DNA of 64,000 nucleotides from Chlorobiota bacterium (GTDB lineage: Bacteria > Bacteroidota > Bacteroidia > Bacteroidales > Marinilabiliaceae). Under the pieces are notes generated by a model. The model did no database searches. It worked only from the letters and a program-made list of their open reading frames with translations, and was not told the origin of the DNA. Of this stretch, positions 6,130 through 62,265 are shown piece after piece (within the stretch, counting starts at the first letter, position 1; every line of letters starts with the position of its first letter). The position numbers were made by a program, and so were the translations under genes. The stretch covers positions 2,202 through 66,201 of the forward strand of contig JAADEM010000037.1 in assembly GCA_013153405.1 (NCBI GenBank). Direction: 5' to 3'.

Positions 6130-6174
6130 AAAAAGGGTGTCCCAAAAGCTTTTGCTATCCGGACACCCTTTTTG
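6130..6174. terminator. Bidirectional rho-independent terminator hairpin; minimal member of the GGGTGTCC/GGACACCC palindrome family
   Basis: AAAAAGGGTGTCC-loop-GGACACCCTTTTTG sits between convergent genes, with an A-run on one side and a T-run on the other. Confidence 0.75.
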
Positions 6175-7300: not shown

Positions 7301-7358
7301 GAGGTGCCGCCTCCAAAAAAAAGCAGCACCTCGAGCGGAATGACAACTTTACGGACAG
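7301..7358. repeat. Degenerate nested hairpin related to the palindromic element family (putative terminator of 7378-10236)
   Basis: Inner stem is GAGGTGCCGC/GCAGCACCTC. It is followed by CGGAATGACAACTTTACGGACAG, which resembles the family arm CGGAATGACGACTTTTGGGACAT. Confidence 0.35.
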
Positions 7359-17696: not shown

Positions 17697-17716
17697 TAAT
17701 TTGAGTATAAAATAAG

Positions 17717-17792
17717 AAAAGAGGGTGTCCGAAAAGTAAAACAGCCACGTCATTGTGGTAAGGAATGACGACTTTTAGGACACCCTCTTTTC
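17717..17792. repeat. Nested-palindrome intergenic element, copy A (short form); acts as a bidirectional terminator between sodB and 17844-19175
   Basis: AAAAGAGGGTGTCCGAAAAGTAAAACAGCCACGTCATT-GTGGTAAGG-AATGACGACTTTTAGGACACCCTCTTTT. The outer stem is GAGGGTGTCC/GGACACCCTC and the inner stem is CGTCATT/AATGACG. Confidence 0.8.
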
Positions 17793-17843
17793 TTAAGTGT
17801 TTAGGTTTAAATGACCTGTATTGTTTTTATCGAGATGATGTAT

Positions 17844-28178: not shown

Positions 28179-28546
28179 GAGGATGTCCCAAAAGTAAAAA
28201 ATTAACGTCATTGCGAGGAGGAACGACGAAGCCCGCCAGGTCAGAGTGTTCGGGCAGGCAATCTATTGATATTCAACATGTATAAGCTTTGATGCTCCCT
28301 GTTTGCCGAAGCTTCGGCGCAGGCAGACTTCACTCCGTTACCCAATGACGGAGTTGCTTAAGACGCTGATTGACAACAAGACTTGTTCGTCACTGCGAAC
28401 CCCATTTTATGGGGTGAAGCAATCCCCGGCAAAAGGGAGACTGCTTCTTCGCTCGCGCTCATTGCAGTGACGCTGATATTTCATCATTTACTCATTATGC
28501 CCCAAGAATTTGGAGTGAATACTCGGAATGACGACTTTTGGGACAT
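28179..28546. repeat. Nested-palindrome intergenic element, copy B (long form, ~368 bp)
   Basis: Left arm GAGGATGTCCCAAAAGTAAAAAATTAACGTCATTGCGAGG. Right arm CGGAATGACGACTTTTGGGACAT. The interior is a chain of further palindromes: GCCGAAGCTTCGGC, ACTCCGT..ACGGAGT, CCCCAT..ATGGGG and CGTCACTGC..GCAGTGACG. The ~110 bp at the right share clear identity with copy D (CATTTACTCATTATGC(C/T)CCAA..AATT(T/G)G). Confidence 0.8.
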
Positions 28547-28559
28547 TTTCAGTAATGCG

Positions 28560-38015: not shown

Positions 38016-38160
38016 CGAGAATGTCCAAAAAGTTGTCATCCGAATGAAGTGAAGCCTGCCTGTCAAACTGTTTTGGTCTGGCTTCTCGTTCCCAAAATAA
38101 TCGGGACAAGCTGTTCTTTTCCGTAAAGACGTTAATGTTTTACTTTTTTGGACATCCTCG
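38016..38160. repeat. Nested-palindrome intergenic element, copy C (~145 bp)
   Basis: Left arm GAGAATGTCCAAAAAGTTGTCATCCGAATG. Right arm GACGTTAATGTTTTACTTTTTTGGACATCCTCG. It lies between the convergent TM2 gene and lpdA. Confidence 0.75.
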
Positions 38161-55459: not shown

Positions 55460-55705
55460 AACATACATTTCTGTGATTTTTTTGTTTATCAAAGTGTCAT
55501 TTTGGAATTCTGCATATGAGGCAGCAGATGAAAATTCCCAATCTTCAGGGTTGTTGTACAGATCCTGCTTTTACGGGATTTTTGTGGATGTAGTTAAGGC
55601 ATACCTGTGTATATTGTCTTTCCGGTATCAATATTTATAACCGTTGCTCCATTTTCCGTAAAAAGCAGGAGATAATCCTTGTGTGCAATATCGGTTGATT
55701 AGGAT
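55460..55705 (-). pseudogene. Relic of a Y1 (IS200/RayT-like, PF01797-type) transposase gene: C-terminal fragment with at least two frameshifts
   Basis: Minus strand: ...IAHKDYLLLFTENGATVINIDTGKTIYTGMP[shift]NYIHKNPVKAGSVQQ[shift]PEDWEFSSAASYAEFQNDTL. The YIH-NPV-AG-V--PEDW-(Y/F)SS block is the conserved C-terminal signature of this family. The fragment is 5'-truncated by the murF/alr stop at 55729. Confidence 0.55.
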
Positions 55706-61279: not shown

Positions 61280-61295
61280 ATTAAAAAGCTTTTAC

Positions 61296-61546
61296 AGGAT
61301 GCTCAAAAAGTCGTTATTCCGATAGCTTTTCCCAAATTATGGGACATATAATGAGGATGTAACGAGATGTACATAGTTATTGCGATGAGCGCAGGCAGGC
61401 AATCTCAGGCAAGTGAGAGGCTGCCGGGGCTTCTTTGCTCATGCTTATCGCAGTGACGTGAATATTCCGTCATTTACTCATTATGCTCCAAAAATTGGGT
61501 TGAATTTTCGGAATGACGTTATTGTTTTACTTTTTGGACATCCTCT
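61296..61546. repeat. Nested-palindrome intergenic element, copy D (~250 bp)
   Basis: Left arm CAGGATGCTCAAAAAGTCGTTATTCCGA. Right arm TCGGAATGACGTTATTGTTTTACTTTTTGGACATCCTCTG. The interior is homologous to the right part of copy B. Confidence 0.8.
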
Positions 61547-61575
61547 GTTTTTTGCCACAAAACATCCACTCCTGT

Positions 61576-62265
61576 ATGAAATATCAGCATATTCTATTCG
61601 ATCTTGATCATACCCTTTGGGATTTTCATACCAATTCTATGATTACATTGCGTGAACTGTTCAGGGAATTGGAACTGAAACATTTTTTTAAAGATTTTGA
61701 TTTATTCTTTAATCTTTATGAAGAGAATAACCTGCGGTTGTGGAGCGAGTACCGAAAGGGCTTAATTGGTAAAAAAGAGCTTAATTTTCAACGATTTTAT
61801 TATCCGTTTAAAGTTTCCGGATATGATGAAGAGGAGCTGGCCAGGAAGTTTGCCGGTGAATATGTAAAACGCAGCCCGTTGAAAACGGAGCTAATGCCTG
61901 GTGCTGTTGAAATACTCGAGTATCTAAAACCTAAATATAACCTTCATATTATAACCAACGGGTTTCTTGAAGTGCAGGATGTTAAGCTGAAAAAAAGCGG
62001 ATTGGATAAATATTTTGAACGTGTCTTTATATCTGAGCTTATTGGTGTTCAGAAACCTGACGTTTATTTTTTTGAATATGTTGTAAAAAGTCTGAATGCA
62101 TCAAAAAAGGAGTGTATGGTTATAGGGGACAGTTATGAGGCTGATATAATCGGCGCAAAGAATTTCGGACTCGACCATATCTTTTACAATTCAACCCGAA
62201 AGAAACACAACAACAGTGTAATGTACGAAATATCACATCTCACTGAGATAAAAGATATTTTATGA
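61576..62265 (+). CDS. HAD-superfamily hydrolase (YjjG-like nucleotidase subfamily)
   Basis: The track ORF starts at 61513, inside repeat D. The real start is MKYQHILFDLDHTLWDF (DxDxT motif). Later ITNG and IGDSYEADIIGA. Confidence 0.8.
   Translation: MKYQHILFDLDHTLWDFHTNSMITLRELFRELELKHFFKDFDLFFNLYEENNLRLWSEYRKGLIGKKELNFQRFYYPFKVSGYDEEELARKFAGEYVKRSPLKTELMPGAVEILEYLKPKYNLHIITNGFLEVQDVKLKKSGLDKYFERVFISELIGVQKPDVYFFEYVVKSLNASKKECMVIGDSYEADIIGAKNFGLDHIFYNSTRKKHNNSVMYEISHLTEIKDIL

Follow-up and report, generated by a model that had tools for sequence, protein, structure and literature searches.

The nested palindromes scattered through the stretch of DNA considered here (the window, 64 kb in length) belong to a family of non-coding elements that, as judged from comparison of its copies, has recently spread through the source genome. 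We think it probable that the family was amplified within its lineage, that its building blocks are relatives of the CGTC-tagged REPs and of the NTS/SRM repeats, that its copies spread by a hairpin-directed process, and that they take up the terminator slot. The genome that holds the window (G000) comprises 3.78 Mb in 187 contigs, its assembly is 93% complete, and four congeners (G001, G002, G003 and G004) were compared with it.

In its canonical form, the element is a 131-bp palindrome (about 26 copies have almost exactly this length) in which two inverted hairpin modules are enclosed by a shell of 17-bp inverted repeats (GAGGATGTCCAAAAAGT, with its complement at the other end); the full layout reads GAGGATGTCCAAAAAGT, an A-rich stretch of 10-11 nt, CGTCATTGCGAGGAGGAACGACGAAGCAATCTC, about 25 nt, GAGATTCCTTCATTTCATTCGGAATGACG and ACTTTTTGGACATCCTC. 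A canonical copy is predicted to fold as a single long hairpin (-51.8 kcal/mol, z -7.8). The modules obey a common grammar, in which a CGTC or, in some cases, TGTC tag precedes a stem of 5 bp and GA, and the loop is followed by GAAG, by the complement of the stem and by CTC; in the canonical form, this becomes CGTC-ATTSC-GA…GAAG-SAAT-CTC; their loops are GA-rich and 10-20 nt or longer, with a median of 19-22 nt. The genome contains 489 tagged modules, with the stems ATTGC (200), ATTCC (170), ATCGC (81) and ACTGC (38). For these four stem types, the stem's own complement lies within 90 nt in 35-54% of the tagged cases versus 4-13% of untagged occurrences of the same pentamers, and this covariation supports a small hairpin. 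The 131-bp copies of G004, for their part, have GAGGC...GCCTC where the source genome has GAGGA...TCCTC; in other words, both arms change together, in a compensated manner. Long forms of the element carry 4-8 modules, and a second tier of nesting is provided by perfect mini-hairpins of 27-31 nt (three types, about 50 copies in all), which always sit directly after the GAAG of a module. The elements had been described in an earlier note as expandable, and growth by insertion of these 27-31-nt mini-hairpins after GAAG bears this out, with the addition that long forms are also propagated as units.

All six sites that had been reported in the window exist, and their coordinates could be refined (Table 1): one is a deletion derivative, two are long forms, one is a diverged copy and two are remnants. 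The canonical 131-bp form is absent from the window, and no family copies were found in its 64 kb beyond the reported sites. Copy B has five recognizable modules as compared to three in copy D, with CGTCACTGC modules on both strands, and a predicted fold of -143.6 kcal/mol (z -6.1); the internal palindromes ascribed to it earlier are all present, including those at 28232-28258 and, with the GCCGAAGCTTCGGC core, at 28305-28318. Its type B mini-hairpin recurs at the identical insertion site elsewhere in the genome (C152:8609, C121:44206 and C78:7694). The homology of about 110 bp claimed between copies B and D amounts to 121 nt at 76% identity, with the arms in addition. Copy B is not the product of local accretion; the whole unit (about 370 nt) has four full-length relatives at other loci of the genome, at 76-83% identity. 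In the short copy at 17721-17787, the palindrome runs on into the flanks (17713-17795, 25 nt, 96%). Between the right arm of copy D and the start codon of a HAD hydrolase gene there are 30 nt (61529-61576), and the corresponding spacer of G001 has a plain hairpin alone.

Table 1. Family-related sites in the 64-kb window, with the component parts of the long forms
Feature	Window position	Strand	Remarks
Terminator-like hairpin, possibly a collapsed element	6130-6174	.	left arm 6133-6149 is the sole shell-like part (AAGGGTGTCCCAAAAGC)
Solo right end, GGAATGACAACTTTACGGACA, remnant of tag and shell arm	7337-7357	-	
Short copy, two shell arms and two CGTC tags	17721-17787	.	interior deleted
Copy B, long form	28179-28550		arms 28179-28195 and 28534-28550
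Copy B, left shell arm GAGGATGTCCCAAAAGT	28179-28195	+	predicted fold pairs 28179-28195 with 28534-28550
Copy B, module M1, CGTC-ATTGC-GAGGAGGAACGACGAAG ... CAATC	28206-28263	+	split by mini-hairpin; M1 is uninterrupted in canonical copies
Copy B, nested mini-hairpin type B, CCCGCCAGG...CGGGCAGG	28232-28258	.	directly after the GAAG of M1
Copy B, remnant of mini-hairpin type A, GCCGAAGCTTCGGC core	28305-28318	.	
Copy B, tag and stem, CGTCATTGG-type module	28342-28350	-	
Copy B, module CGTC-ACTGC-GAACCCCATTTTATGGGGTGAAG-CAATC	28388-28424	+	
Copy B, module CGTC-ACTGC-AATGAGCGCGAGCGAAGAAG-CAGTC	28439-28472	-	
Copy B, terminal CGTCATTCC tag	28525-28550	-	abuts right shell arm
Copy C, diverged, both arms and one TGTC tag	38017-38159	.	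arms 38017-38033 and 38143-38159
Copy D, long form	61295-61545	.	left arm 61295-61311 degenerate; right arm 61529-61545 intact
Copy D, modules	61312; 61450-61458; 61510-61518	+; -; -	

The arms that these sites had been said to share are real, and they are abundant. With GAGGATGTCCnAAAAGT and its complement taken together, the 3.78-Mb genome has about 143 of the shared arms, and a search with TGTCCNAAAAGT (12 fixed bases) returned 70 + 73 occurrences, 143 altogether, where fewer than one is expected in the 7.6 Mb of two strands. The combination TGTCCNAAAAGT-N(0-14)-CGTCATT is found 108 times, versus none for the reversed control, and a profile of the commonest form gave 180 matches that merge to about 120 loci, dispersed at gene 3' ends. 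Among some copies, mutual identity is as high as 97%, and canonical copies reach 98-99% identity with the query copy; coding DNA is only 68-83% identical between congeners. Many contig ends lie inside elements, i.e. the family copies break the assembly. G004 has a 131-bp subfamily of its own with a mean identity of 95%. Full-length elements are restricted to the source genus among 40 relatives, and the arm-plus-tag pattern is present in none of 400 other sampled Bacteroidota genomes (180 genera). A scan of 185,579 species returned 41 matches, of which about 17 are estimated to be due to chance (the matches within coding sequences or from genomes of high GC seem to be of this kind), and the same architecture is found in scattered Chitinophagales, Flavobacteriales, Cytophagales and Sphingobacteriales as well as in one 'Spirochaetes' MAG. 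A search for conspecific contigs through exact flanking proteins returned the source contig alone (JGI 3300005095), and insertion polymorphism within the species was not observed.

Mobility had been proposed to be testable by empty sites in related genomes, and this test came out in its favor: at every orthologous site that could be aligned in the four congeners, the element is absent, and at five of these sites there is a plain hairpin in its place. For example, the site after sodB, which holds the short copy at 17721-17787, has an unrelated hairpin in G003 and G004. The convergent TM2/lpdA pair around copy C is syntenic in G001, G003 and G004, with a short plain hairpin in each, and the genes on either side of copy D are direct neighbors in G001, where the spacer consists of a plain A7-hairpin-A7, AAAAAAATCATCGGATGAC..GTCATCCGATGAAAAAAA. 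After the proline dehydrogenase gene (the 6130-6174 site), G001 and G002 have a different hairpin, homologous between the two. Five further loci with young copies are likewise empty in relatives. On the strength of these alignments, the element appears to sit where ordinary terminator hairpins sit in relatives. At the C35 locus, the source genome has the element between TACTCAT and ATGAGTA, and G002 keeps the hairpin TTACTCAT-21 nt-ATGAGTAA with the element absent; since G002 retains the flanking stem, the element there occupies the loop of an older hairpin. We infer that landing in older hairpin loops may be the general rule, with a pre-existing stem evident at one orthologous site only.

Mechanistically, we envision that a single-strand, hairpin-directed process spreads the copies and that this process would land in, or replace, existing hairpin loops. 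The outer stem, together with flanking A/T tracts, would then act as a terminator, in many cases in both directions, and insertions at gene 3' ends would thus presumably be tolerated. The gene contexts are compatible with such a role. In the window, four sites lie between convergent genes and one between tandem genes, just as had been claimed, and the remnant at 7337 is also tandem. Genome-wide, on a crude ORF-based gene map, 35 loci are convergent (359 such spacers exist), 49 are tandem (1,922), three are divergent (372) and 32 are at contig edges, with a median distance of 27.5 nt from the upstream stop codon to the element start. A T-run is present on only about a third of element sides (35%, versus 18% of random intergenic positions), and 12 of 64 copies have one at either end; in tandem contexts, it is found on the downstream side in 13 of 36 cases and on the upstream side in five of 36. 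The position at 3' ends, the T-tract enrichment and the replacement of plain hairpins all fit a putative role as terminator or 3'-stabilizer, in which the elements may replace terminators or provide outward-facing signals.

Where do the modules come from? By their sequence, they appear to be relatives of the CGTC-tagged REP superfamily, the class that includes the Neisseria dRS3/NTS repeats. CGTC-tagged REPs have been reported in Bacteroidetes, Chlorobi and Spirochaetes (Di Nocera, De Gregorio & Rocco 2013, BMC Genomics 14:522; PMC3733652), in a superfamily that includes Neisseria dRS3 and Rickettsia RPE-4/6 and whose members have no RAYT beside them, and in H. neapolitanus each CGTC-1 dimer is enclosed by a 41-bp palindrome (PMC3733652), which is reminiscent of our dimer in its 17-bp shell. 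Like the family described here, these REPs have an unpaired tag (CGTC or TGTC, with CCTC also in the REPs' definition) and, next to it, a stem beginning with A-T, they are mostly inverted dimers able to fold as one larger hairpin, and they are located 3' of genes, in the spacers of convergent or co-directional ORFs, without a RAYT partner. There are differences, however. The stem of our modules is 5 bp rather than 8-9 bp and starts with AT (ATTGC, ATTCC, ATCGC) or AC (ACTGC), the loop is GA-rich and 10-20 nt or longer rather than 4-5 nt, and a CTC tail takes the place of CCA; long forms of up to eight modules and the second tier of mini-hairpins after GAAG are further points of difference. Given the differences in stem length, loop length and tail, the modules fall outside the four described CGTC-tagged families. 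The suggestion in the earlier note that this element type had gone undescribed is not supported as far as the building blocks are concerned, which are CGTC-tagged REPs known in Bacteroidetes (PMC3733652) and related to the Ssn-associated NTS/SRM repeats (PMC11893778). A literature search with the module sequence itself returned chance matches alone.

The relationship to NTS brings a candidate enzyme into view. SsnA, a GIY-YIG single-strand nuclease of 94 aa, was shown in 2025 to have NTS as its substrate, and the ssn gene is typically bracketed by the repeats (Chenal et al. 2025, Nat Commun 16:2388; PMC11893778). The Neisseria NTS, CGTCATTCCCGCG..GCGGGAATC, has CGTCATTCC...GGAATC in common with module M2, and the repeat-gene-repeat layout of Ssn systems is also seen in congeners and MAGs, in which family modules lie within 400 nt of a gene for a single-domain GIY-YIG protein of about 100 aa (G001, G002 and the Bacteroidota MAGs G440, G441 and G442; on both sides in G002 and G442). 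In G002, a TGTC module is upstream of this gene, and downstream of it is the reverse complement of M1 with mini-hairpin B; the 100-aa protein is 77% identical between G001 and G002. Across ten genomes, seven GIY-YIG genes share 40% identity or more with the G002 protein, and six of the seven have tagged modules no farther than 400 nt away; none of the 14 GIY-YIG genes of other types has tagged modules nearby. The nearest solved structure is that of a UPF0213 protein (E 7.5e-4); we call the Bacteroidota protein Ssn-like, and its membership in cd10448 is putative. An Ssn-type GIY-YIG nuclease may thus possibly drive the spread of the family. To our knowledge, movement of repeats by Ssn has been shown in no organism.

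Other observations speak against such a link. By tblastn, the source assembly (93% complete) has no Ssn-like homologue of the G002 subfamily; its four GIY-YIG matches are a tRNA-linked 82-aa gene, a 471-aa frame taken as UvrC, a pseudogene and a fragment, and none of the four is flanked by modules. The 82-aa single-domain gene (G000:C157:30300-31400) is located between tRNA genes, and behind it is a second copy of the block made up of a tRNA 3' end, a terminator and the gene's initial 40 nt, like a truncated tandem tRNA-GIY-YIG unit. G004 has many elements and lacks a close GIY-YIG homologue; G001 has the gene and few elements. The subfamily of about 100 aa comprises 3,928 clusters, and for many of its members the sole source is a contig of 500-2,000 nt, as expected if assembly-breaking repeats bracket the gene, and a gene so bracketed would be readily lost from binned genomes. 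The JGI-derived homologues of the ssn-like gene are all from other samples. At the level of motifs, the published SRM expression, HGTCWYN(0-2)YYVSBRHN(0-5)WNVSBRGN(0-2)RNCYNB, has eight matches in the genome versus 5-9 in shuffled genomes, with none in family loci; the Neisseria NTS passes it, whereas the family modules M1, M2, C and D fail. Because the published motif misses the family variant, surveys of Ssn-associated repeats probably undercount Bacteroidota.

A bolder version of this idea, which we hold only tentatively and consider doubtful, is that the module-ssn-module units represent an undescribed class of mobile DNA in its autonomous state, with the family elements as their non-autonomous passengers. 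The GIY-YIG single-strand nuclease would recognize CGTC-tagged hairpins, and single-stranded hairpins would enter the loops of terminators or of modules (GAAG^), with no duplication of the target. If true, this would explain the Russian-doll nesting, and it would also explain the distribution of the 30-nt module M1, which is shared by Bacteroidota, plasmids of Nostocales and phage-like contigs: M1 is 100% identical in Calothrix and Aulosira plasmids and 97% identical in Trichormus and Tolypothrix, and two phage-like contigs have it too, in one instance as a dimer that lacks a shell. In cyanobacteria, very small dispersed repeats that are nested have reportedly been described by Elhai et al. 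in 2008. Compared by description, those small dispersed repeats resemble our family in being tiny hairpins within other repeats, with the structure of the host repeat preserved.

The more conventional possibility is that the elements are classical MITEs, i.e. internally deleted insertion sequences whose 17-bp ends are acted upon by a DDE transposase and whose autonomous element is missing from the fragmented assembly. The family does have the terminal inverted repeats (17 bp), the small size, the lack of coding capacity and the high copy number of a MITE, and metagenome-assembled genomes often lose multi-copy insertion sequences. Additionally, in Calothrix a TGTC-tagged dimer of the same modules is enclosed by GAGTGTTCCAAGTAAAA / GAGTATTCCAACAAATA, a shell similar to the one in Bacteroidota, and in one Calothrix plasmid a gene for an IS701-family transposase lies at a distance of about 120 nt from this shell. 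Nevertheless, we regard a classical MITE as unlikely. Direct-repeat target duplication was sought in 64 copies, including the youngest, at 14x14 boundary offsets with k = 2-9, and none was found at any boundary or offset, which argues against an ordinary DDE-transposase MITE. The flanks tend instead to inverted repeats, being inverted-complementary over at least 5 nt in 12 of 64 copies versus 3.9 expected, with many of these being A/T runs, the specific ones including AGTTAC, GTCAT and CTACTCA, and most flanks not palindromic. Moreover, the source genome contains no long arm-bounded segment with a transposase gene, and the interior of the element is made of REP-like modules rather than of insertion-sequence remnants. 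The family is without direct repeats, unlike the cyanobacterial MITE Nezha, from which it is set apart by the description of Nezha as having direct repeats and ISNpu3-like ends (PMC3184786).

Alternatively, the palindromes might not be mobile at all; they could be a terminator or RNA-stability motif selected by the host and copied from one 3' end to another by recombination or gene conversion, or conserved for a host protein or an RNA structure. The strict 3'-end bias, the enrichment in T-tracts and the compensated arm changes within copies would agree with this, and the identity of the 30-nt module across phyla could reflect functional constraint. However, relatives have ordinary, unrelated hairpins at the same sites, the pattern is in none of the 400 other Bacteroidota genomes sampled, and each species has its own near-identical subfamily. 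Furthermore, the internal asymmetry of the elements has no orientation bias relative to transcription (15 versus 14), and the modules are also found in phage-like contigs and cyanobacterial plasmids. Nor is there a match to a known structured RNA in Rfam 15, which gave no gathering-score match across the window and none even at E<=1 for copy B or for a canonical copy. Taken together, these observations make a non-mobile origin improbable in our estimation.

The family also has much in common with REPINs and BIMEs, which are associated with RAYT (Nunvar 2010; Bertels & Rainey 2011), namely inverted tagged-hairpin doublets, mosaic clusters, absence of target duplication and extragenic location at 3' ends. 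A REPIN in the strict sense, with inverted REP doublets mobilized by a RAYT (Y1, IS200-like) transposase, is nonetheless very unlikely, even though the canonical element is an inverted tagged-hairpin doublet that folds as one long hairpin and the source genome has two PF01797 (Y1) genes: both of these genes are beside palindromes unrelated to the family, the Y1 relic at window position 55460-55705 has no family motif nearby, none of 30 Y1 loci in seven genomes has a shell arm, G002 has elements without a Y1 gene, and the tag is CGTC rather than the GTAG of REPINs, with CGTC repeats lacking a RAYT also in the work of Di Nocera et al. (PMC3733652). A tag-like motif is present at three of the 30 Y1 loci, and at only one of these is its distance to the gene no more than a few hundred bases; the loci otherwise have other palindromes, or nothing relevant, at their sides, and no RAYT association was found in the source genome and 12 others. 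The RAYT-like genes of the source genome have other repeats alongside, unlike REPIN systems: at G000:C29:1960-2960, these are GC-rich hairpin clusters, CACAGGGC..GCCCTGTG and GGCCGAAAGGCC, and at G000:C187:18000-18700, CGTAGTTTGAAACTACG cores are on both sides, all of them unrelated to the family. The expectation of a Y1/RayT gene with flanking copies was hence disappointed, and of the MITE/REPIN-like label that the earlier note had given to the elements, what stands is that they are dispersed, recently amplified nested palindromes; neither the classical MITE nor the RAYT-type REPIN fits them.

Several other repeats came to light alongside the family. A second family in the source genome consists of perfect palindromes with a GTAG tag, GTAGGGACGCACGGCCGTGCGTCCCTAC, in about 17 copies (34 strand-hits; e.g. 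G000:C35:10210, C3:3065, C17:1595 and C42:9142; none in the window), and in G002 (L013 590-650) one copy of the GTAG-tagged palindrome has a further sequence, CCCGAAATAATCGGGG, nested in it, which is similar to the interior of copy C. To the left of the canonical copy at C18:71562, just outside the window, is a stretch (G000:C18:71470-71550) that is repeated about 25 times in G002, indicating that G002 has a further dispersed repeat family. In G004 (L023 2130-2185), a tandem array, GGATGTACGATGTTA, of about four copies lies between the sodB stop codon and the terminator hairpin, and G003 has a degenerate stretch related to it.

To return to the reading that we favor, a lineage-amplified family of CGTC-REP and NTS/SRM relatives that spreads from hairpin to hairpin has consequences both practical and biological. 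For annotation, the elements create spurious ORFs, for example those with the LLFGHPLF peptides that had been remarked upon previously and that arise from reading through the arms, and they break assemblies. CGTC-tagged repeats are widespread, and for their biology the source genome is an unusually clean natural experiment, in that it combines a young, high-copy family with empty sites in congeners, a preference for terminator positions, two tiers of nesting with a defined point of insertion (after GAAG) and, in sister species, an Ssn-like nuclease gene between the same modules.
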